Shown: piece by piece, positions 39,346 through 64,000 of the stretch
Layout of the letters: the number at the start of each line of letters is the position of its first letter
Position numbering within the stretch: the first letter of the stretch is position 1
Origin: Pantanalinema sp.
GTDB lineage: Bacteria; Cyanobacteriota; Sericytochromatia; S15B-MN24; UBA4093
Length of the DNA stretch: 64,000 nucleotides
Direction of reading: 5' to 3'
NCBI GenBank assembly: GCA_036704125.1
Contig: DATNQI010000019.1
Span: 971 to 64,970, forward strand
The notes under the pieces: model-generated
Told to the model about the DNA's origin: nothing
Databases searched by the model: none
The model's input: the letters and a program-made list of their open reading frames with translations, nothing else
Translations under genes and position numbers: made by a program

Positions 39346-40788
39346 ATGCACCGGATGATTCGCCAGACCTGCTCGCTGATCCTGGCTGCCGCCTCCTTCG
39401 GCCTCACCGGCTGCGGCCGCGACGCGATGGCCCCGACCGTCACCCCCTTCGTCGCCAAGAAGGCCGCAAGCGCCCAGAGCCCCGCTCAGACCGGCGCCGA
39501 GCTGGGCGGCCTTCCCGCCGTGACCCTCCCCCAGGACCAGGGCCTTTCTGCCGACTTCGGTGACGCCTCGATCGTCGCTTCCTTGCCCGGCGCGGGTGCC
39601 GCCCTCGACTCCGAGGCCCCCTCGGACGCCAGTGCCGACGGCGCCGACTTCACCCTCAGCCGCCCCATGGCCGTCCGCAACCAGATCATCGTCCAGGTCA
39701 AGCCCGGCGCCGCCTACCAGGTGGCCCGCTTCGCCCAGGAGACCGGCTCGCGCGTCGTCCAGAGCATCGACGTGGGCACCCGCTTCCAGGTCGTCACCCT
39801 GCCTGCCGGCATGAGCGTCGTCGACGGGATGGCCAAGTACGGCGCGGCCTCGGGCGTCGCCGCGGTCATGCCCAACCGCATCTACGGCGTCACCGCCTCG
39901 GCCGCCGAGCCCAACGACCCCTACTTCGGCAAGCAGTGGGGCGCCGACAAGATCGATGCGAGCGCCGCCTGGGCCAAGAACATCGACGCGAGCGGCACGA
40001 CCGTCGCCGTCCTCGACACCGGCGTCGACTACCGTCACCCCGAGTTCGGAAGCCGCGTCATCCGGGGCTGGAACTTCGCCGACAACACCAGCGACGTGAT
40101 GGACCGCTTCGGCCACGGCACCCACGTGGCGGGCATCATCGGCGCCGGCGGCAACAACGGCGTCGGCGTCGCCGGGGTGGCCTGGAACGCCAAGATCCTC
40201 GCGGTCAAGGTCCTCGGCGACAACGGCCAGGGCTCGACGGCCGCCGTCATCAGCGGCATCCGCTATGCCGCCGACATGGGCGTCAAGATCATCAACATGA
40301 GCCTCGGCTCGCCCGACACCACCGTCGACCCCGCCCTCTCGACCGCCATCGCCTACGCCAACGCCAAGGGCTGCCTGGTCATCGCCGCGGCCGGCAACAA
40401 CCACGGCGAGGTCGGCTCGCCCGCCAACGACCCCGGCGCGATCGCCGTCAGCTCGACCTCCAAGTTCCTCTTCTGGGAGTACATGTCCTGGTTCTCGAAC
40501 TCCGGCACCAAGATCGAGGTCTCGGCGCCCGGCGGCAGCATCTACTCGACCCTTCCCCTCGATGCCAACAAGACCGGCGCCACCGGCTACGGCAAGCTCT
40601 CGGGCACCTCGATGGCCGCTCCCTTCGTCTCGGGTGAGGCGGCGCTCATCTGGGCCAAGCACCCGAGCTGGACGGCCCAGCAGGTCCGCAACGCCATCAC
40701 CAGCGGCGTGGACCACAAGGGCAGCGCCGGCCGCAACTCCCGCTACGGCTACGGCCGCATCAACCTCGAGAAGGCGCTTTCGCTTTAA
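39346..40788 (+). CDS. subtilisin-like serine protease (peptidase S8) lipoprotein
   Basis: Lipobox (LTGC) and the catalytic triad contexts DTGVDYRHPEF, HGTHVAGIIG and GTSMAAPFVSG. Confidence 0.9.
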   Translation: MHRMIRQTCSLILAAASFGLTGCGRDAMAPTVTPFVAKKAASAQSPAQTGAELGGLPAVTLPQDQGLSADFGDASIVASLPGAGAALDSEAPSDASADGADFTLSRPMAVRNQIIVQVKPGAAYQVARFAQETGSRVVQSIDVGTRFQVVTLPAGMSVVDGMAKYGAASGVAAVMPNRIYGVTASAAEPNDPYFGKQWGADKIDASAAWAKNIDASGTTVAVLDTGVDYRHPEFGSRVIRGWNFADNTSDVMDRFGHGTHVAGIIGAGGNNGVGVAGVAWNAKILAVKVLGDNGQGSTAAVISGIRYAADMGVKIINMSLGSPDTTVDPALSTAIAYANAKGCLVIAAAGNNHGEVGSPANDPGAIAVSSTSKFLFWEYMSWFSNSGTKIEVSAPGGSIYSTLPLDANKTGATGYGKLSGTSMAAPFVSGEAALIWAKHPSWTAQQVRNAITSGVDHKGSAGRNSRYGYGRINLEKALSL

Positions 40789-55640: not shown

Positions 55641-55715
55641 CGTGCCCCGTATAAACACCTTGTGAACAGCGGGCTTGAATGAGAGCGGGCCCGGTGAGAC
55701 GTGAGGAGAGCGAAA

Positions 55716-56498
55716 ATGAGCAAGGTCGTCGGTTACATCTGGATGCACCCCGAAGCCATCAACGCCGAGAAGGTTCGCGCCGAGCGCCATGCGATCGAGG
55801 CCTACTGCGCGGCTCACAACCTCGCCCTGGACGGGATGCAGGTCGATGCCGGCGCCCTGGGCAACGCCCTCGAGCGGCCCGAGATGAAGGCGATCGCCGA
55901 GAAGTCCGAGATCACCGTCGTCGTCGCCTCGATGGTCAGCCTCGGCCGCCGCTTCCACGACGTCGCTACCGTGCTCGCCGAGTTCAACCACAAGGACATC
56001 CGCTTCATCAGCGTCGAGGAGAACATCGACACCGGCCGCCCCGACGGCCAGCAGCTCCTCAAGCTCTTCGTGACCATTCCCCAGGTCGCCAGCTGGGTCC
56101 GCGCCCCCAAGCCCGCCGCCGAGACCAAGGTCTTCGTCCGCAACCGCGAGGTGCTCCACAACGGCGGCACCTGCCCCTACGGCTACACTCTCGACGAGAT
56201 GACCAACCAGTTCGTCGTCAGCCGCACCGAGGCCGCCGTGATCCAGCGCATCTTCCACGAGCGCGCCGCGGGCCGCAGCCTTCGCCAGATCGCCAACGAC
56301 CTCACCCGTGATGCGATCGCCACCAAGCGCGGCGGCCGCTGGCAGGCCAACACCGTTAAGACCATCCTCGAGAACATCTTCTACACCGGCGACTACCAGT
56401 GCCAGGGCCGCCTCTACCCCAACGACCACGAGGCCGTCATCTCCAAGGACCTCTTCGCCCAGGTCAACTCGGCCCAGGAGATCCTCCAGGTCTGCTAG
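55716..56498 (+). CDS. serine-recombinase-like protein lacking the catalytic serine, truncated (resolvase-like domain + recombinase domain only)
   Basis: The resolvase fold is conserved (…VVVASMVSLGRRFHDV…DIRFISVEENIDTGRPDGQQLL…), but the nucleophile motif (G/A)YxRVS(T/S)xxQ is replaced by VGYIWMHPE. A large-serine-recombinase 'Recombinase' domain follows (GGTCPYGY…IANDL…KRGGRWQANTV…IFYTGDY), and there is no zinc-ribbon/coiled-coil C-terminus. GAGGAGAG precedes ATG 55716. Confidence 0.65.
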   Translation: MSKVVGYIWMHPEAINAEKVRAERHAIEAYCAAHNLALDGMQVDAGALGNALERPEMKAIAEKSEITVVVASMVSLGRRFHDVATVLAEFNHKDIRFISVEENIDTGRPDGQQLLKLFVTIPQVASWVRAPKPAAETKVFVRNREVLHNGGTCPYGYTLDEMTNQFVVSRTEAAVIQRIFHERAAGRSLRQIANDLTRDAIATKRGGRWQANTVKTILENIFYTGDYQCQGRLYPNDHEAVISKDLFAQVNSAQEILQVC

Positions 56499-56536: not shown

Positions 56537-56577
56537 CCCTCGGGGGGCCGACTCAGTCGGCCCCCCGAGGGTTTTAT
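56537..56577 (+). terminator. rho-independent terminator
   Basis: ccctcggggggccgac-tca-gtcggccccccgaggg followed by ttttat; preceded by the direct repeats acgctctctc x2. Confidence 0.85.
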
Positions 56578-56639
56578 GGCGCCCGTTCGCTGAAGTCGAA
56601 GGCCCCGCGACACTGCCGCGGGGCCTTCGGGGCACGGGG

Positions 56640-57275
56640 TCACGCCGCTGGCGCGGGAGGCCTGTCGTTTTTCTCCGAGCGTGCGAGCAGCGCGAAGTCG
56701 ATGCACAGCTCCTTGCCCGAGGCCCAGACGCCCCGGAAGCCCCCGATGACGGCCGCTGCGATCGACGCCCCCCAGGTGGCCAGGGGGCGAGGGACGTTGA
56801 AGCTCCCGAGCTGCAGCCGCTCGATCTGGAAGTTGAAGGTGCTCTCTGCGGTCTGGCGTGGGGCGACGTCGCTGCGCAGCGGGATCTTCCAGCCGAAGAG
56901 GTCGAGCTCGCCCTGGATCTGGAGCTTCTTGTCGTCGGCCACGTGGACCGCCAGGGACTTCACCAGGCCGCCCGAGGGGATCGCGACCTTCTCGCAGACG
57001 TCGGTGGTGACGATGCCGTACTTGGCCTGGCCGGACACCGTCGCGTGTCCTGCATCGGTGAAATCCACCCGGAAGTCTCGCCCGTGCTCACCCGCCAGGA
57101 CGTCGGCGACCTTGAGCTCCACCTGCACGGGGATGAAGCCGAGGACATCCTTGCGGACGCTCAGATTTCCTTGCGGGTTGAGGGCGATGCCGCCGCCAGC
57201 CTGCACCGGGCCGGGCTCCGGCTCGGAGGCGCGGCGCGAGGGCTGGGGGGTGCCGGGGCGGATGGGAGGGATCAT
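56640..57275 (-). CDS. hypothetical protein with C-terminal hydrophobic helix; last gene of the FHA/kinase operon
   Basis: A 211-aa ORF with typical codon usage, a Pro-rich N-terminus and a C-terminal TM-like segment (ASIAAAVIGGFRGVWASG). Confidence 0.45.
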   Translation of the reverse strand: MIPPIRPGTPQPSRRASEPEPGPVQAGGGIALNPQGNLSVRKDVLGFIPVQVELKVADVLAGEHGRDFRVDFTDAGHATVSGQAKYGIVTTDVCEKVAIPSGGLVKSLAVHVADDKKLQIQGELDLFGWKIPLRSDVAPRQTAESTFNFQIERLQLGSFNVPRPLATWGASIAAAVIGGFRGVWASGKELCIDFALLARSEKNDRPPAPAA

Positions 57276-57385
57276 GGCGCGCTCCTCTGGAGTGGGGGCT
57301 CCATGGTTATCGGCAGCCCGGCCCGAGAAGCTGCTAAAAAGCGCCGGGGCGTTCCTTGAAAGGAACGCCCCGGCGCAGCGAGGTT

Positions 57386-57871
57386 CTAGGCTTCGAGGAG
57401 CTTGAAGAAGGTCTTGCCCATGACGATCTCGTCACCGGCCTTGACCAGCTGCGGGCTGCCCGGCATCAGTCGCGGGCCGCGGTTGACGTAGGTGCCGTTC
57501 AGGCTGCCGAGGTCCTCGACGAAGTACTCGCCCTCCTCGACGAAGAGGCGCGCGTGCTTGCGCGAGATCTTGGCCTCGGCGTCGTCCGAGGTCAGATCGA
57601 CCTCGGGGAAGGATCCGCCGTCCGGATCCCAGCGGCCGACATGGGTCTCGCCCGAGATCTCGAGAACGAACTCCTTGCCGACGGTCCCGCCGCGGGTGAT
57701 GACCAGCTTGGCGCGGTAGCTCGCGGGTGCTCCGAGCGTTCCCGGCTGGGGGTACGAGGCGGCGACATCCGAGGCGGGGACGCTCGAAACGAGCTCCAGC
57801 TTCGCGCCGCACTCGTCGCAGAACTGGATGCCCGACTGGTTTTCGTGGCTACAAGCCGTGCAGACGCTCAT
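57386..57871 (-). CDS. zinc-ribbon + FHA domain protein
   Basis: N-terminal CxxC…CxxC (CTACSHEN…CDECG) and a C-terminal FHA (…GRWDPDGG…DLTSDD…SRKHARLF…GSLNGTYVN). Confidence 0.8.
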   Translation of the reverse strand: MSVCTACSHENQSGIQFCDECGAKLELVSSVPASDVAASYPQPGTLGAPASYRAKLVITRGGTVGKEFVLEISGETHVGRWDPDGGSFPEVDLTSDDAEAKISRKHARLFVEEGEYFVEDLGSLNGTYVNRGPRLMPGSPQLVKAGDEIVMGKTFFKLLEA

Positions 57872-57881
57872 CGCTTTCCCC

Positions 57882-58241
57882 CTAGGCCTGGAAGAACTTG
57901 AAGAAGGTCTTGCCCATGACGATCTCGTCGCCGTCCTTGATGGCCTGGGGGCTGCCGGGCAGGAGGCGCGGGCCGCGGTTGACGTAGGTGCCGTTGAGGC
58001 TGCCGAGGTCCTCGACGAAGTACTCGCCGTTCTCGATGAAGATCCGCGCGTGCTTGCGCGAGATCTTGGCCTCGGGGTCGTCCGACGTCAGGTCCACCTC
58101 GGGGAAGGCGCCGCCGTCCGGGTCCCAGCGGCCGATCAGCGTCTCGCCGCCGGTCTCGACGGCGAACTCCTTGCCCACGGTCCCGCCGCGGGTGATGACC
58201 AGCTTGACCGTGGCGGCGATGGAATTCGTGGTGTCGCTCAT
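57882..58241 (-). CDS. FHA domain protein (tandem paralog of the downstream FHA gene)
   Basis: A stand-alone FHA ~85% identical to the FHA of 57386..57871 (KLVITRGGTVGKEF…ISRKHARIF…GDEIVMGKTFFKF). Confidence 0.8.
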   Translation of the reverse strand: MSDTTNSIAATVKLVITRGGTVGKEFAVETGGETLIGRWDPDGGAFPEVDLTSDDPEAKISRKHARIFIENGEYFVEDLGSLNGTYVNRGPRLLPGSPQAIKDGDEIVMGKTFFKFFQA

Positions 58242-58293
58242 CCTGGGGTTCTCCTCATGAATGCGGTGGGGGGCGAAAGGAAAGAGGTGAGAT

Positions 58294-59955
58294 CTAGGAA
58301 TACTCGGCGAGGTTGACCAGCACGACGGTGATGTTGTCCTCGCCGCCGCGCTGGTTGGCCAGGTTCACCAGCTTGCGGGCCGCGAGGTTGGGCTCGGCGG
58401 CGTTGATGACCACCTCCTGCAGCTCCTCGTCGGAGACGTGGCCCGTGAGGCCGTCGCTGCACAAGAGCAGCCAGTCCCCGATCTTGAGGGGCCGCTGGTA
58501 CAGGTCGACCTCGACGTTCGGGTAGGTGCCGAGCGAGCGATAGATCAGGTTGCGCTGCGGGTGGATCGCCGCCTCCTCGAGGGTGATCTGGCCGATCTCG
58601 ACCAGGCGCCCGACGAGGCTGTGATCGCGCGACACCTTCTCGATGCCCTCGCGGTTGATCAGGTAGGCGCGACTGTCGCCCACGTGCCCGATGAAGACGT
58701 TCTGGCCGAAGACCAGAGCGGCGGTGACGGTGGTGCCCATCCCTGAGAGGTCCGCGTTGTGGCGGCCGGTCTCGTAGATGCGGGAGTTCGCGTTCTTGAT
58801 GGCCTGCTGCATGGCCGCGCGGATCTCCTGGGCCGGGTCGTCCACCCCCTCGTTGAGGTTGACCAGCGCCTCCTGGACGTGCGAGGTCACGGCGTCCACG
58901 GCCAGAGCGCTCGCGATCTCGCCCGCGTTGACCCCGCCCATGCCGTCGGCGACCACGTACAGCCCGAGCCCCGACTGGGTGGACTGGGTGGTGAAGGTCA
59001 GGTCGAAGACCGCGAGGCTGTCCTCGTTGCCCGTCCGGACGATGCCCACGTCCGAGCAGTGGCCGGCCCGGCGCTGGGGGTTGTTGATCAGGGCGAGCAG
59101 GTGGGCCTTGAGCTCCTGCACCGTCTCGAAGCGATCGTCGGGATCGGGCGCGAGCATCTTGCGGACGATCCGCTCGATCTGCGGGTGGATCGCCTCGTTG
59201 AACGCGCTGAGGTCCGGCAGGTTGAAGCGCGTCTCCTCGTTGGGCCAGTAGCTCTCGGGGGAGTTGCCGGTGAGCAGGTAGTGCCACAGGGCGCCCAGGG
59301 CGTAGATGTCCGAGCGCTCGTCGACCTTGCCGCTCAGGTACCCGAACTGCTCGGGCGGCGAGTAGCCGGGCGTCGAGTCGGTGGGGACGGGGCAGGGCAG
59401 GATGGCGGCGCGGTGGAAGCCCGTGAGGCGCACCCGCTGGAAGTCGGGGGTGACGACCACGTAACGGGGCTGCAGGTCCAGGTGCAGGATCTGCCGGCGG
59501 TGGAGCTGGCCGATGGACTGGCACAGCTGGATCATCCAGTCAAGGGACTGCTGGACGCCGATGGCGGTGCCGTTGCGCAGGAGGTAGGCCAGGTCGCGCC
59601 CCTCGAGCTGCTCGATCACCAGGTAGGCGCGATCGCTCGCCTTGAAGATGTCGAGGGCCTTGACCACGGTCGGGTAGGAGACCGAGCGCAGGATCAGGAA
59701 CTCGTTCTGCCAGGGGTTGTCCCAGGCCTTCTCCGCCCACTCGCTCTCGGGCAGGGCGCTGGTGCTGGCCTCGTCCTCCTTCTCCTTGACGATGACCACG
59801 AAGCCCGTGGCCTGGTCGATCGCCCGGTAGAGGTTGGCGCCGTTCTTGTACTCGAGGAAGCGCTCGACCGCGTAGCGGTTGGCGAGCAGGGTGTCCGCTT
59901 CGAGCGGCGCAAGGGGGCTGGTCGCGGAGCCGCGGTCGGAACGAGGCGAGGTCAT
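58294..59955 (-). CDS. pseudokinase-like domain fused to PP2C (PPM-family) Ser/Thr phosphatase
   Basis: The N-terminal kinase-fold domain has degenerate motifs: there is no GxGxxG loop, the catalytic loop reads HLDLQP instead of HRDLKP, and DFG is replaced by TGF. The C-terminal PP2C domain has an intact metal-binding motif set (VADGMGG, HVGDSRAY, LLCSDGL, GGEDNITVV). AAGGAG lies 8 nt before ATG 59953-59955. Confidence 0.75.
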   Translation of the reverse strand: MTSPRSDRGSATSPLAPLEADTLLANRYAVERFLEYKNGANLYRAIDQATGFVVIVKEKEDEASTSALPESEWAEKAWDNPWQNEFLILRSVSYPTVVKALDIFKASDRAYLVIEQLEGRDLAYLLRNGTAIGVQQSLDWMIQLCQSIGQLHRRQILHLDLQPRYVVVTPDFQRVRLTGFHRAAILPCPVPTDSTPGYSPPEQFGYLSGKVDERSDIYALGALWHYLLTGNSPESYWPNEETRFNLPDLSAFNEAIHPQIERIVRKMLAPDPDDRFETVQELKAHLLALINNPQRRAGHCSDVGIVRTGNEDSLAVFDLTFTTQSTQSGLGLYVVADGMGGVNAGEIASALAVDAVTSHVQEALVNLNEGVDDPAQEIRAAMQQAIKNANSRIYETGRHNADLSGMGTTVTAALVFGQNVFIGHVGDSRAYLINREGIEKVSRDHSLVGRLVEIGQITLEEAAIHPQRNLIYRSLGTYPNVEVDLYQRPLKIGDWLLLCSDGLTGHVSDEELQEVVINAAEPNLAARKLVNLANQRGGEDNITVVLVNLAEYS

Positions 59956-59972
59956 GGCTCGTGGCTCCTTTC

Positions 59973-61190
59973 TTAACGGGCGAGCATCCACCAGAGGCCG
60001 GCCGAGATCACGAGGGCGGCCGCGACGGCAGCCCCCGCGATCAAGAGGCGCCTGGGGAGGGTGGGGCGCTCGGTCCGGCCGGTGGCCTTGGGACGACCGA
60101 GGTGGCCCGTTGCGGCCCGGTAGATCTGGCTGGACGTGGAGGCGTGGTGGGCGGCGATGTAGTTGCGGCAGTGGGGGCAGAACTGGCGGCCCTTGGAGAT
60201 CTGCTCGCCGCAGTGGGGGCAGGTGCGCACGGCGTTGCTCGCCTCGCCTCCCACGCGGATCAGGGCGACCAGCATGTCGTCGGCACTGGCGTAGCGCTTC
60301 TCGATGTCGGAGTCGAGGGAGCGCATGACCAACTCCTCGGTCGCGTCCGTGACCTCGGGGTTGAGCTGGCGCACGGGCGGGAACGAGAAGGGGGCCTCGT
60401 TCTGAGGGTCGCGCCCGGTGAGCATGTAGTGCATGGTCGCCCCCAGCGCGTAGAGGTCGGTGCGGGGCTCGACCTGGCCGCGGTACTGCTCGGGGGGCGC
60501 GTAGCCCTGGGTGCCGATCATGGTGCCGCGGGCCGTGGGGTTGAAGAAGCGCGCGATGCCGAAGTCGACCAGGTAGATCTTGCCGAACTCGGTGAGCATG
60601 AGGTTGGCGGGCTTCATGTCCCGGAAGATGATGGGCGGCTTCTGGTGGTGGAGGTAGCTCAGCACGTCGCAGACCTGGATGGCCCAGCCGATCACGCTCT
60701 TCTCGTCGAAGGGGTTGTTGGACTGCTCGCAGATCCGGGCCTCCAGGTCCGAGCCGTTGATGTACTCCATCACGATGTAGTGGCGGTTCGACTCGGTGAA
60801 GCGGTCGAAGACCTCGGGGATGGAGTTGTGCTTGAGGCTGGCGAGCATGTCCGCCTCGCGGTAGAAGTTCTGCATCGCCGTCTCGCGCTGCTCGCCATCG
60901 GCGAAGTGGTCGAGCATCTCCTTGACGACGCAGACCTTGCTCGAGAAGCGGGTGTCGTTGGCCAGGTAGACGGCGCCCATCCCCCCCTGCCCGACGAGCT
61001 GGGTGATGCGGTACCGGTCCTGCAGCAGGGTCGAGGGCGACAGCAGGCCGCTCGCGCCCACCGAGCCCGCGGGCTGGGTGACGTGCGAGCTCGAGTGGGT
61101 CGCGGTCACCGCCCCCTTGAGGGGCTTGCCGCAGTCGCAGCAGAAGCGGTTCTCGGCGTTGTTATCCGTCTGGCAGTTGGAGCAGATCAA
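59973..61190 (-). CDS. Ser/Thr protein kinase flanked by N- and C-terminal zinc ribbons, C-terminal TM anchor
   Basis: Active Hanks motifs are present (GQGGMGAVY, VCVVKEM, FRDMKPANLML, DFG, APPE). It has an N-terminal CxxC…CxxC, a C-terminal CPHCG…CPHCR and a terminal TM helix. The start is probably TTG 61188-61190, with GGAGG ~11 nt upstream. Confidence 0.8.
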   Translation of the reverse strand: MICSNCQTDNNAENRFCCDCGKPLKGAVTATHSSSHVTQPAGSVGASGLLSPSTLLQDRYRITQLVGQGGMGAVYLANDTRFSSKVCVVKEMLDHFADGEQRETAMQNFYREADMLASLKHNSIPEVFDRFTESNRHYIVMEYINGSDLEARICEQSNNPFDEKSVIGWAIQVCDVLSYLHHQKPPIIFRDMKPANLMLTEFGKIYLVDFGIARFFNPTARGTMIGTQGYAPPEQYRGQVEPRTDLYALGATMHYMLTGRDPQNEAPFSFPPVRQLNPEVTDATEELVMRSLDSDIEKRYASADDMLVALIRVGGEASNAVRTCPHCGEQISKGRQFCPHCRNYIAAHHASTSSQIYRAATGHLGRPKATGRTERPTLPRRLLIAGAAVAAALVISAGLWWMLAR

Positions 61191-61268: not shown

Positions 61269-62597
61269 CTACCATTTGAACAAGTTTAGCACAAATCCGA
61301 GGTTGTTCGTCTGGCCGGGAGCCCCGCCCCCGGGCGGTTCCCCGGTGATGTAACCGGTGCTCCATGCCGAGGTGTCGCCAATGGCGAGCACCAGGCCCTG
61401 AGCGTAGGGCTGGGCGACGGCGATCGCAGGCCCGCCGAGCGTGGCGGCGACGCGGTATCCGCCGTCGCCCGCGCGCGCGATGGCGCGCGCCGTGGGCGGG
61501 GCGAAGATCGAGCAGGCCTCGTAGAAGGTGACGCCGCCCGGCATGGCATGCGGGGCGGGCAGCTCGGGGGCGGCCACCTTGATCCAGCCGGGCTGGGCGG
61601 AGTTCGCGGTGGTGCGGACCAGGTCGGGGCAGAAGGCGAGGCCGAAGGGCCGGGCGATGCGGTTGAGCGCCTCGGGCGAGTAGTCGAGCGCGCCGCCCCA
61701 CTCGCCCATCAGCACGAGGGTGCCGCCCGAGGCGACGAAGTCCTGGAGGCGGCTTGCGGTCGCATCGGTCGCGAAGGCCGCGCGGGGGCTCGCGACCACC
61801 CGCACATCGGCTGCGTCCGAGACGCTGGTCGAGACGGTGAAGTCGGTGCCGAGCGCCGACTTGAGCGCACCCAGGGCGGTGCCGACGGAGGTTGCGCCGA
61901 AGGGCTGGGCGTCATTCTCGAAGACGACGATGGGCTTGGTGGCCTGGCGCGCGAGGACGACGCTGCCGAGGGCGAGGTCCGTGCCGTTCAGCGCAACCTG
62001 CCGGGTCGAGGGGGCGTGGAGCGCCTTGCGGATGCTGAGGGTGTGCGCTCCGGCTCCCAGGCCCTCGAGGGTGAAGCCCCCGTCGGCCCCCGAGAAGGTC
62101 CAGCTCTCGCCCGCGGCGACGCGGGCCCCCTCGATGGGGCCACCGGGCCCCGAGACCGTGCCGCTGATCGTGCCCGCCTGGGGGGTGAGCTCGACGGTGG
62201 TCTCGAGGGGGGTCTTGGGGTCGATCGAAAGACCCGTGACCAGGCGGGTCGCGTGGCCCGGGGCCGAGACCCGCAGCGCGTAGGTGCCGGCCTCCAGCGG
62301 GTCGAAGCGCATGGGAAGCGCCGAATCGGTGACGCCCCAGGCGGGAGTCGGCCCGACGAGGCTCACGGTCGCGCCCGCGATCCGATCCTGGGTGCCCGCC
62401 CGGCGGACGTTGACGCTCAGGATGCCGTTGACCAGGGCCGTGCCGCTGACGAAGACCTGGCGGCTGAGCGTGGGGCTCGGAGCCGGGCCGGGAGGCTGGG
62501 GCGGATCGGGAGTGGGCGCCGGGGGTTGCCCGGGGAAGAGGAAGCAACCCGAGAGGGACAGGGTGGCGAGCATCCCGACGAGGATCGTTCGGCGCAT
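61269..62597 (-). CDS. lipoprotein with tandem carboxypeptidase-regulatory-like (CarbopepD_reg) beta-sandwich domains and an uncharacterised C-terminal domain
   Basis: ATG 62595-62597 overlaps the stop of the S8 gene (ATGA). It has a lipobox (LSLSGC) and two 'ATVSL…G…TDS.G.F…L..GTY.L.VSAPG' type units. The track ORF 61269..63659 is a frame artefact spanning two genes. Confidence 0.55.
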   Translation of the reverse strand: MRRTILVGMLATLSLSGCFLFPGQPPAPTPDPPQPPGPAPSPTLSRQVFVSGTALVNGILSVNVRRAGTQDRIAGATVSLVGPTPAWGVTDSALPMRFDPLEAGTYALRVSAPGHATRLVTGLSIDPKTPLETTVELTPQAGTISGTVSGPGGPIEGARVAAGESWTFSGADGGFTLEGLGAGAHTLSIRKALHAPSTRQVALNGTDLALGSVVLARQATKPIVVFENDAQPFGATSVGTALGALKSALGTDFTVSTSVSDAADVRVVASPRAAFATDATASRLQDFVASGGTLVLMGEWGGALDYSPEALNRIARPFGLAFCPDLVRTTANSAQPGWIKVAAPELPAPHAMPGGVTFYEACSIFAPPTARAIARAGDGGYRVAATLGGPAIAVAQPYAQGLVLAIGDTSAWSTGYITGEPPGGGAPGQTNNLGFVLNLFKW

Positions 62598-64000
62598 CAC
62601 GGGGTGCCTCCTGCGGCGCTCCACTGGAGCGCCTTGAGCGGGTCGACCAGGCCGTAGCCGGTCTCGTTGCTGAAGCCGCCGGCGGAAAGGGGCTTTGCCG
62701 TCGCGATCAGGCGGGCGCGGACCTGGGAGGGGCTGAGCGACTGGCCGCGGGCCCTGGCGTCGGCGATGACGAGGGCCGCCACGCCGCTCACCACCGGGGT
62801 CGCCATGGAGGTGCCGCTCAGGACGCCGTAGTTCAGGGGAAGGCGCCCCGACTCGTAGAAGCTGTAGGTCGGCAGCGTCGAGTAGATCCCGTCGTTGAAC
62901 TTGCTGGCGTCGCCGACGCCGCTGCTGCCCCCGGGGGCGACCAGCGAGACCTCGGGGCCGCGGTTGCTGTAGCCGGGGATGGAGGTTGCGGAGCCCTCCT
63001 TGCCCGAGGTGGCCCCGACGCAGATCACCCCCGCGTAGGCCGCCGGGTAGTAGACCGCTCCGTAGCCGTTGCCCGAGGCGATCACGACGGTGACCCCCTT
63101 GGCCATGTCGTAGGCCAGCACGTCGGCCAAGAGCTGGCTGGGCTCGGGACCGCCCACCGAGAGGTTGATGACGTCGGCCCCCGCGTCGGCCGCGTCCTTG
63201 AGGCCCTGGGCGATCGCGAAGTCCGAGCCCGAGCCGTCGGCGCGCATGACCTTGACCGGCAGGATGGAGACGCCGGGGGCGACCCCCACCATGCCGCCGT
63301 TGTCGCCCGCGGCCCCCAGGATCCCGGCCACGTGGGTGCCGTGGCCGTTGCCGTCCTTGAAGGCGTAGGGGGTGTTGCCGGTGCCGAGGGTGGTGTCGCC
63401 CTCCACCTCGTCGATATAGAAGGGGGCGCCCTCCGAGGTGCTCGCGACGCGCGTGGAGAGCTTGGGATAGTTCTCGAAGATCCCCGCCGGCACCCTGGCG
63501 ATGTTGGGGGCGAGATCCGGGTGGCTCGCGTCCACGCCGGTGTCCACCACGGCGACCGTCACGCCCTTGCCGGGCGGCGAGGCCTGCGAGGCGGTGGCGA
63601 AGCTCGTGGAGTTCCAGGCCGCGTTCATGTCGATCCCGCGCTGTGCGCGCAGGTACCACTGGTACTGGCTGCTGGCCTCGCTCGGAGCGTAGGCCTGGGT
63701 CCGGCGCACGTAGTTGGGCTCGGCGTACTCGAAGGCCTCATGGCGGCTCAGGGCACTGCGCAGGGCCGCCGCGTCGCCCTGGATGGTCCAGCGCTCGGTG
63801 TCGGGCAGGATGGCGTCGACCTGCTGGACGCCGTGGGTGAGCCGCAGGGCCTCGCGTTCGCTTTGGCCGGTCTCGGCCTTGAACTTGACGATGAGCTCAC
63901 CTTCGACCTGGGGGCTCGCCGAGCGCGAGGCCCCGGGGGCGGTGCCCCAGAAGGCCTGACAGCCGGTGACGGCCAAGGTGAGGGCGAGTGCCGCCCCGAA
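62597..64000 (-). CDS. subtilisin-like serine protease (peptidase S8) with I9 propeptide; 5' end beyond window
   Basis: The D/H/S triad is present (VVDTGVDASHPD, HGTHVAGILG, GTSMATPVVSG). Its signal peptide continues past position 64000 (…ALALTLAVTGCQAF). Confidence 0.85.
   Translation of the reverse strand, partial: FGAALALTLAVTGCQAFWGTAPGASRSASPQVEGELIVKFKAETGQSEREALRLTHGVQQVDAILPDTERWTIQGDAAALRSALSRHEAFEYAEPNYVRRTQAYAPSEASSQYQWYLRAQRGIDMNAAWNSTSFATASQASPPGKGVTVAVVDTGVDASHPDLAPNIARVPAGIFENYPKLSTRVASTSEGAPFYIDEVEGDTTLGTGNTPYAFKDGNGHGTHVAGILGAAGDNGGMVGVAPGVSILPVKVMRADGSGSDFAIAQGLKDAADAGADVINLSVGGPEPSQLLADVLAYDMAKGVTVVIASGNGYGAVYYPAAYAGVICVGATSGKEGSATSIPGYSNRGPEVSLVAPGGSSGVGDASKFNDGIYSTLPTYSFYESGRLPLNYGVLSGTSMATPVVSGVAALVIADARARGQSLSPSQVRARLIATAKPLSAGGFSNETGYGLVDPLKALQWSAAGGTP

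Follow-up and report, generated by a model that had tools for sequence, protein, structure and literature searches.

In the 64,000-nucleotide (nt) stretch of Pantanalinema sp. DNA analyzed here (contig DATNQI010000019.1; Cyanobacteriota, Sericytochromatia; hereafter the window), a gene at 58294..59955 on the minus strand encodes a protein in which an N-terminal kinase-like domain is followed by a C-terminal PP2C/PPM phosphatase. It can be concluded with high confidence that this protein belongs to a conserved pseudokinase-PP2C fusion family whose non-catalytic domain is functional. The role proposed below, in which the dead domain would dock onto the Ser/Thr kinase (STK) encoded by the adjacent gene and couple the phosphatase to it, is put forward tentatively, as a specific mechanism that falls somewhat short of being probable, and the whole explanation, in which the fusion family and the docking mechanism are blended, has about an even chance of being correct.

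The fusion gene and its phosphatase half

The gene was delineated from its open reading frame (ORF), from Pfam matches to Pkinase and PP2C, and from orthologs (96% identity) which, like the protein itself, comprise 553 amino acids (aa) before the stop codon. The ATG at 59955 is most likely its start, because a Shine-Dalgarno-like AAGGAG read from the sequence (59965..59970, minus strand) is located 9 nt 5' of it, the stop codon of the STK gene (59973-59975) lies 17 nt before it, and the resulting length agrees with that of the orthologs. The longest reading of the ORF that ends at 58294 on the minus strand begins with an in-frame GTG at 59991, which was rejected as the start since it would extend into the end of the STK gene and since the Shine-Dalgarno-like motif and the ortholog length belong to the ATG. 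The Pfam family Pkinase (PF00069) matched aa 43-285 (E-value 1.1e-23; 84 bits against a cutoff of 31.7), which places the N-terminal half within the Hanks-type kinase fold, and PP2C (PF00481/PF13672) matched aa 321-548; neither RsbU_N nor FHA gave a Pfam match in the fusion protein. The pseudokinase domain was assigned to aa 18-292 (59080..59904, minus strand) and the phosphatase domain to aa 295-549 (58309..59073, minus strand).

The phosphatase half scored 266.6 bits against the NCBIfam Stp1/IreP equivalog NF033484 (Stp1_PP2C_phos; cutoff 230, model positions 2-231/232) and is 37-41% identical to solved structures. Its motifs RTGNED, DGMGG, GMGTT, GDSRAY, RDHS, SDGLT, and GEDN are all intact, and the metal-coordinating motifs are invariant in a 61-sequence alignment and match Staphylococcus aureus Stp1 residue for residue. 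Judged by its score, these motifs, and the similarity to solved structures, the C-terminal half is a bona fide Stp1/IreP/PstP-type PP2C with an intact catalytic set, in agreement with an earlier note on this DNA, in which the phosphatase had been described as looking fully intact.

Residues lost and kept in the kinase-like half

Kinase motifs were placed by three independent alignments, that is, HMMER alignments to the solved kinase domains of StkP, PknB, and EGFR, a BLASTP comparison with the neighboring STK, and a 123-sequence MAFFT alignment (PknB, the neighbor, and 120 homologs), all of which put them at identical positions. HRDLKPxN is aligned with H158-L-D-L-Q-P-R-Y165 and DFG with G179-F-H181. 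The Gly-rich loop GxGxxG is lost, its place being taken by E35-Y-K-N-G-A40 in the MAFFT alignment with PknB and the neighboring STK (59836..59853; this and the following features are on the minus strand). The β3 lysine K57 is kept within VIVK (59785..59787), in which Ile55 replaces the Ala of VAIK. In the catalytic loop (59461..59484), placed by HMMER and by family frequencies, the Asp is kept and three residues are lost (Arg to Leu, Lys to Gln, and Asn to Tyr), and the metal-binding Asp is lost where G179-F-H181 replaces DFG (59413..59421). The APE equivalent is P200-P-E202 (59350..59358), whose Glu is invariant, and the αC Glu (E85), the αF Asp (D216), and its partner Arg (R275) are retained.

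Residue frequencies were counted among 91 close homologs (88 scored at some positions). The position of the DFG Asp is Gly and that of the HRD Arg is Leu or Met in every one of the 91, the catalytic-loop Lys is replaced by Gln, Asn, or His in about 87 of them, the Asn position is variable (Tyr, Cys, Val, or Phe), and the residue that replaces the DFG Gly varies as well (His in 43, Asp in 30, and Ser in 14). The Ala of VAIK is Ile in 88/88, the β3 Lys is kept in 84/88, the αC Glu in 85/88, and the HxD Asp in 91/91, and an Arg is found at D+4 (R164) in 88/91. Compared with a competent Hanks kinase, the β3 Lys/αC Glu pair is present, and the Gly-rich loop, HRDxKxxN, and the DFG Asp are not. Pseudokinases are defined by sequence as lacking at least one of the VAIK-Lys, HRD-Asp, and DFG-Asp (bioRxiv 10.1101/2025.01.12.632604). 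By this sequence definition the N-terminal domain is a pseudokinase, because none of the 91 close homologs and none of the 26 scored members of a more distant family (see below) has the DFG Asp. The earlier note had listed the β3 Lys in VIVK, the HLDLQP Asp, and PPE as kept and the Gly loop, the HRD Lys/Asn, and the DFG Asp as lost, and had proposed an alignment with Hanks kinases as a check; the three alignments bore out every one of these assignments, and a different gap placement that would restore the catalytic residues was rejected, as the motif positions from HMMER, BLASTP, and MAFFT coincide.

The same residues bear on the possibility that the domain is an atypical but active kinase, which would make the protein a bifunctional kinase/phosphatase using Mg-independent, CASK-like transfer or other ATP chemistry via K57, D160, and R164. 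CASK has G-F-G for DFG and lacks the catalytic-loop Asn, yet it is active. Besides the retention of K57, E85, and D160, such a reading could draw on R164, which is at the position of the catalytic-loop Arg of tyrosine kinases, and on a PP2C survey in which kinase-bearing PP2Cs were assumed to have possibly both activities (PMC12088040). However, the Gly loop, the catalytic-loop Lys and Asn, and the DFG Asp have all been lost together, the Asn position and the residue replacing the DFG Gly vary freely, and the Pfam Pkinase score of 84 bits compares with 129-154 bits for nine active relatives and 134.5 bits for the neighboring STK, and kinase activity of this domain appears very improbable.

Distribution and selection of the fusion family

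In line with the distribution survey proposed in the earlier note, protein searches revealed two families. Full-length orthologs retrieved by protein search form about 90 clusters (90% identity) and are 48-96% identical to the fusion protein; those named by NCBI are mostly from 'Candidatus Sericytochromatia bacterium' or Cyanobacteria metagenome-assembled genomes (MAGs), and their database names are only 'Stp1/IreP family PP2C-type Ser/Thr phosphatase' or 'PrpC'. The window is about 90% nucleotide-identical to one contig of GCA_017744355.1. The second family, at 35-40% identity, has the layout N-terminal Zn ribbon, pseudokinase, and PP2C and is more degenerate, as Arg has replaced the β3 Lys, the αC Glu is gone, and CLELPPEG stands where HRDLKPxN would be. 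At least 120 clusters of this family, named only as phosphatases, were retrieved in a dedicated search, and they come from Binatia, Methylomirabilota, and 'Deltaproteobacteria' MAGs; both families together comprise more than 200 clusters at 90% identity from uncultured lineages of several phyla. A scan of GTDB genomes was based on PP2C-motif patterns, and the matches listed were mostly PP2C-only genes and adjacent stp/stk pairs; among them, useful loci came from Binatia, 'delta', and Blastocatellia.

The ratio of nonsynonymous to synonymous substitution rates (dN/dS) was calculated by the Nei-Gojobori method against three relatives (L087, L088, and L089), giving 0.16, 0.38, and 0.32, respectively, for the pseudokinase and 0.11, 0.11, and 0.24 for PP2C. 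The dead domain is clearly under purifying selection, though somewhat more relaxed than PP2C. This is of importance for the view that the kinase domain is a functionless, decaying remnant of an old fusion with a role in folding only, which could account for its faster evolution (mean identity to the query 0.59 for the pseudokinase versus 0.64 for PP2C in the close family and 0.31 versus 0.44 in the distant family) and for its higher dN/dS. However, dN/dS values of 0.16-0.38 are well below 1, the fold is modeled with high confidence, and more than 200 clusters of several phyla have preserved the domain at full length, with its specific substitutions and the junction spacing. The relic view is already contradicted by these conservation data and has only a negligible chance of being right.

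Predicted structure and the interdomain junction

An AlphaFold2 model of the fusion protein built from the 61-sequence alignment had a mean predicted local distance difference test (pLDDT) value of 90.7 and a predicted template modeling (pTM) score of 0.82 over the 553-aa chain. In the model, the kinase αI helix (279-291) leads through about three residues into the first PP2C strand (295-302), with pLDDT near 90 throughout. The distance from the kinase R275 to R307, the Arg of the first PP2C motif, is 32 aa in all 91 close homologs, and the equivalent spacing in the distant family is 32 aa in 24 of 29 members and 36 in the other five. Because the domains nearly abut and the junction spacing is invariant, they are probably coupled rigidly, possibly with allosteric control, and the model suggests that the kinase-like and PP2C domains make up a single rigid unit and are not strung together flexibly. 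The tether of which the earlier note spoke would have to be revised in this respect, as the coupling appears rigid rather than loose. The model of a distant homolog reached a pTM of only 0.56, and a fixed two-domain geometry is therefore supported for the family of the window only; extending it to the distant family was rejected on this ground, despite the conserved junction spacing. Conserved αE/αI residues were also considered as markers of the interdomain interface and rejected as uninformative, since they are shared with PknB or the partner STK.

A rigid junction of invariant length, together with the high pTM, would also suit an intramolecular allosteric sensor, in which the degenerate pocket would bind a nucleotide or another small ligand and gate PP2C through the junction, so that contact with the STK would be unnecessary. 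The near-strict retention of the β3 Lys, the αC Glu, and the HxD Asp despite the loss of catalysis-specific residues is in line with such a sensor, as is the conserved Arg at D+4. By contrast, charged and bulky residues have taken the place of the Gly-rich loop, Ile replaces the adenine-contacting Ala in every scored close homolog, both Mg ligands are gone, and the strict adjacency of the STK gene would be left unexplained. In addition, the distant family has lost the Lys (to Arg) and the αC Glu, and ligand binding is therefore not a family-wide function. The sensor is thus an unlikely, though not a negligible, explanation. The broader idea that the pseudokinase is a ligand- or partner-operated allosteric switch integrated with PP2C, the signal passing through the junction, is likewise rather doubtful; the trigger of this same switch, with a similarly low likelihood, might be either occupancy of the remnant ATP pocket (K57/E85/D160/R164) or heterodimerization with the cognate kinase.

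Genomic context of the fusion gene

The genes on the minus strand of this part of the window are arranged in the order S8 subtilase, CarboxypepD_reg/DUF4350 protein, Zn-ribbon STK, pseudokinase-PP2C, FHA protein, and Zn-ribbon-FHA protein. The partner STK (405 aa; 59973..61190, minus strand), which appears to be active, matched Pfam Pkinase (134.5 bits) and Zn-ribbon families and consists of an N-terminal Zn ribbon, the kinase domain, a second Zn ribbon, and a C-terminal hydrophobic anchor. Its motifs GQGGMG, VVKE, FRDMKPAN, and DFG are intact in the MAFFT alignment. FRD is found in place of HRD, and the hydrophobic tail has almost no extracytoplasmic part; the ortholog in L084 has 855 aa and carries a periplasmic-binding-protein domain. 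In the window and in each of the seven close-family loci fetched, a Zn-ribbon STK gene immediately precedes the fusion gene, with anything from a 4-nt overlap to a 42-nt gap between the two.

On the other side of the fusion gene lie two genes for FHA proteins, namely, a 119-aa phospho-Thr reader (57882..58241, minus strand; Pfam FHA E-value 4.8e-16; syntenic in L087-L089) and a 161-aa Zn-ribbon-FHA protein (57386..57871, minus strand; Pfam), which by BLASTP is 83% identical to the former over the FHA domain. The first lacks a Zn ribbon, and the second has gained or kept an N-terminal one; the tandem pair (57386-58241) looks like a recent duplication inside the signaling operon. FHA genes occur 3' of the fusion gene in five of the eight close-family loci (the window, L084, and L087-L089) and are absent beside it in L001/L002 and L085. 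The fusion gene is the second gene of a phospho-threonine operon, which includes an STK writer, the pseudokinase-PP2C eraser, and two FHA readers.

In the distant family, FHA genes flank the fusion gene, the gene order being VWA - FHA - kinase - FHA - [Zn-ribbon-pseudokinase-PP2C] - kinase or a variant thereof, and five of six loci have an STK gene next to it or no more than about 2 kb away; one Blastocatellia locus (L005) has no kinase or FHA gene within 6 kb of the fusion gene. Compared with Binatia-type loci, the small FHA protein of the window is 62-66% identical, the STK kinase domain 51-57%, PP2C 43-47%, and the pseudokinase only about 30%, so that within a conserved module the dead domain evolves fastest. 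For the small FHA protein and the STK kinase domain, the identity between the window and the Binatia/'delta' loci (L003, L004, L006, and L007) is unusually high across phyla, which points to horizontal spread of the cassette or else to very strong constraint. Zn ribbons recur across the module, being present twice in the STK, once in the second FHA protein, and in the distant-family fusion (L003, L004, and L086); they may serve as a shared device for localization or homotypic interaction, and the Sericytochromatia fusion protein has lost its own Zn ribbon.

The presence of FHA genes after or around the fusion gene raises the possibility of a phospho-dependent platform resembling that of MviN/FhaA, in which the STK would phosphorylate a Thr of the pseudokinase, the FHA proteins would bind it, and PP2C would reset the complex. 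A precedent is provided by the MviN pseudokinase and FhaA (PMC3989709), and the variable β3-αC insert of the fusion protein carries Ser/Thr, one subgroup having PRTxS[IL] in it, which fits the pT-x-x-I/L preference of FHA domains. However, this insert is missing in several orthologs (e.g., P0049 and P0052), the loci without FHA genes beside the fusion gene would not fit, and no Thr in aa 1-295, invariant or otherwise, is conserved in at least 90% of the sequences of the 61-sequence alignment. FHA recruitment through a pseudokinase phospho-Thr is unsupported, because no such Thr is conserved family-wide, and the platform as a whole is improbable.

Proposed mechanism

The docking mechanism, which is favored over the alternatives considered above, assumes that the dead domain is a kinase mimic, which would be retained as an interaction or regulatory module. 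A kinase-kinase dimer interface would join the pseudokinase to the kinase domain of the neighboring STK, which is membrane-anchored, and the otherwise soluble phosphatase would in this way be brought to its cognate kinase. Owing to the rigid junction, pairing may also switch the PP2C active site or orient it toward the phosphorylated activation loop of the STK and nearby FHA-bound phospho-targets; the net outcome would be a built-in, kinase-specific off-switch. A possible interface is indicated by R27 and D102, which align with PknB R10 and D76, are conserved in 88/88 and 89/91 close homologs, respectively, and have counterparts in the neighboring STK. R10, L33, and D76 make up the back-to-back dimer interface of PknB, and structures of the PknB D76A and L33D mutants were among the PDB matches. 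The docking role suggested in the earlier note, which would recruit the neighboring STK or its FHA substrates to the phosphatase, fits the STK adjacency and the similarity between the STK and the pseudokinase; recruitment of FHA proteins through a phospho-Thr of the pseudokinase is, as stated above, unsupported.

Several observations weigh against the docking mechanism. The residues equivalent to the PknB dimer interface are not conserved in the distant family (R in 7/29 and D in 4/29), where the interdomain geometry is not fixed either (pTM 0.56), so that the N-lobe-dimer detail may apply to one lineage only or be mistaken. Synteny alone is no proof of pseudokinase-mediated pairing, since adjacency of kinase and phosphatase genes is common without any pseudokinase. 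Moreover, pure docking offers no explanation for why K57, E85, and D160 are strictly retained in the close family.

Origin of the dead domain

The pseudokinase is more similar to the neighboring STK (106 bits and 29% identity by BLASTP) than to PknB/StkP (55-57 bits by HMMER). It was also used in an HMMER scan of 1.84 billion protein representatives, the top of which was dominated by proteins with multiple kinase domains and in which the close family, at 50% clustering, amounted to one representative and a short fragment. Ten single-stretch matches (35-39% identity) were inspected; nine look like active STKs, of which six carry a Zn ribbon, and the tenth (P0218) has a Pfam Pkinase score of 88 bits, as low as that of the pseudokinase. 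The dead domain probably shares its ancestry in a Zn-ribbon kinase clade with the neighboring STK, plausibly by duplication.

Other genes and features of the window

Upstream of the STK gene, the minus strand carries genes for a CarboxypepD_reg/DUF4350 protein (61269 to about 62600, start uncertain) and an S8 subtilase (62597-63976), both identified by Pfam. The pair also precedes the kinase gene in L084 and L087-L089. In the window, a 78-nt gap separates the DUF4350 gene from the STK gene, and the subtilase/DUF4350 pair is tandemly duplicated in relatives. The subtilase and the DUF4350 protein, which are secreted or envelope proteins, may be controlled by the kinase module or expressed together with it. 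Another S8 subtilase homolog, 35% identical to the one at 62597-63976, is encoded at 39952-40779 on the plus strand.

Beyond the FHA genes, a 211-aa ORF (56640-57275, minus strand) without a family match is located in a segment of about 810 nt (56576-57386) that is absent from L087, which is 90% identical to the window. Homologs occur at the same position in L088 (43% identity) and L089 (31% identity), and the ORF is a real gene, which the closest relative has lost; next to it lies a serine recombinase gene (55701-56498, plus strand). Owing to a high GC content (about 68-72%), long spurious or over-extended ORFs arise which are not evidence of genes, such as a 796-aa reading (61269-63659) overlapping the subtilase gene and 400-aa antisense ORFs over the fusion gene (58238-59976).

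A role of the locus in anti-phage defense was considered and rejected. The PADLOC matches (PD-T4-6, MADS6, and PglW) reflect generic kinase similarity, as they cover the kinase domain alone (217 bits for the STK versus 116 bits for the fusion protein), and the locus lies beside core genes, being syntenic with MutS2 and others in relatives at 70-96% protein identity.

Significance and comparison with known systems

To our knowledge, few bacterial pseudokinase families have been recognized, and almost none of them has an assigned mechanism. With regard to the question of how bacterial PP2Cs gain kinase specificity, a dead kinase domain resembling the neighboring kinase would offer a testable answer, namely, kinase mimicry. 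The allosteric switch, if true, would represent a previously undescribed form of PPM phosphatase regulation and a bacterial counterpart of the logic of JAK, guanylyl cyclases, and RNase L; it would have been maintained in Sericytochromatia as well as, with further degeneration, in Binatia and Methylomirabilota. A large uncharacterized family, restricted to uncultured lineages, has been hidden under the annotation "Stp1/IreP phosphatase", and the fusion protein is a compact, confidently modeled two-domain target for structural work. At the same time, its parts are ordinary, the co-occurrence of the two domains has already been catalogued, and current understanding is not overturned; it does not represent an exotic kind of signaling regulator.

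The locus resembles the Stp1-Stk1, PrpC-PrkC, and PstP-PknA/B pairs in that a bona fide Stp1/IreP-type PP2C gene is found beside that of its presumed cognate kinase, and it resembles the actinobacterial fhaA-fhaB-pstP...pknA-pknB cluster in the grouping of kinase, PP2C, and FHA genes (PMC3989709). A similar cluster is also seen in the actinobacterial theme of Zn-ribbon kinase, PP2C, and vWA, but there the proteins are separate and active (PMC7159879). M. tuberculosis MviN (Rv3910) and FhaA offer another likeness, a Hanks-fold pseudokinase in a circuit with an active STK (PknB) and an FHA reader (PMC3989709); the MviN pseudokinase, however, has a lipid II flippase-like membrane protein, rather than a phosphatase, as its fusion partner. 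The family of MviN, ActPs3, lacks the VAIK Lys and the HRD Asp and has a truncated activation loop (bioRxiv 10.1101/2025.01.12.632604), whereas the pseudokinase of the fusion protein keeps the Lys, the Asp, and a full-length activation loop.

Fusions of PP2C and kinase domains have been reported before. A 2005 survey, whose reference list includes a title on the 'kinase-recruitment domain' of RsbU, described PP2C N-terminal to kinase domains in Pseudomonas and Deinococcus (PMC1262709), and a 2025 PP2C survey noted the co-occurrence of PP2C and kinase in one polypeptide (PMC12088040). In these reports, which concern mainly Pseudomonadota, PP2C comes first and activity is assumed for the kinase ('both phosphorylation and dephosphorylation activities'). 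Unlike the Pseudomonas type, the fusion described here has the reversed order, kinase-like domain before PP2C, and its kinase half is degenerate; neither a kinase-first order nor a dead kinase is described in PMC1262709 or PMC12088040. A 2025 bacterial kinase atlas distinguished seven pseudokinase families (CP1, DYD, ActPs1-3, DLHK, and GLW), among which ActPs1-3, DLHK, and GLW all lack the VAIK Lys, with 97-100% of their members also lacking the HRD Asp, and CP1 and DYD lack the Lys only in part; PP2C is not mentioned in the text of the atlas (bioRxiv 10.1101/2025.01.12.632604). Since it retains the Lys and the HxD Asp, the fusion family is set apart by description from ActPs1-3, DLHK, and GLW, which leaves CP1 and DYD as possible affiliations.

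Dead kinase domains that allosterically regulate a joined live enzyme are known from JH2-JH1 of JAK, the KHD of receptor guanylyl cyclases, and RNase L. These eukaryotic pseudokinase-enzyme fusions involve other partner enzymes, other lineages, and another domain order, and nothing indicates common descent with the present family. In B. subtilis RsbU (kinase-recruitment domain) and plant KAPP (FHA and PP2C), an N-terminal partner-binding module directs or activates PP2C. The logic would be alike in the fusion protein of the window, but the modules differ, being a helical bundle in RsbU, an FHA domain in KAPP, and a kinase fold here.

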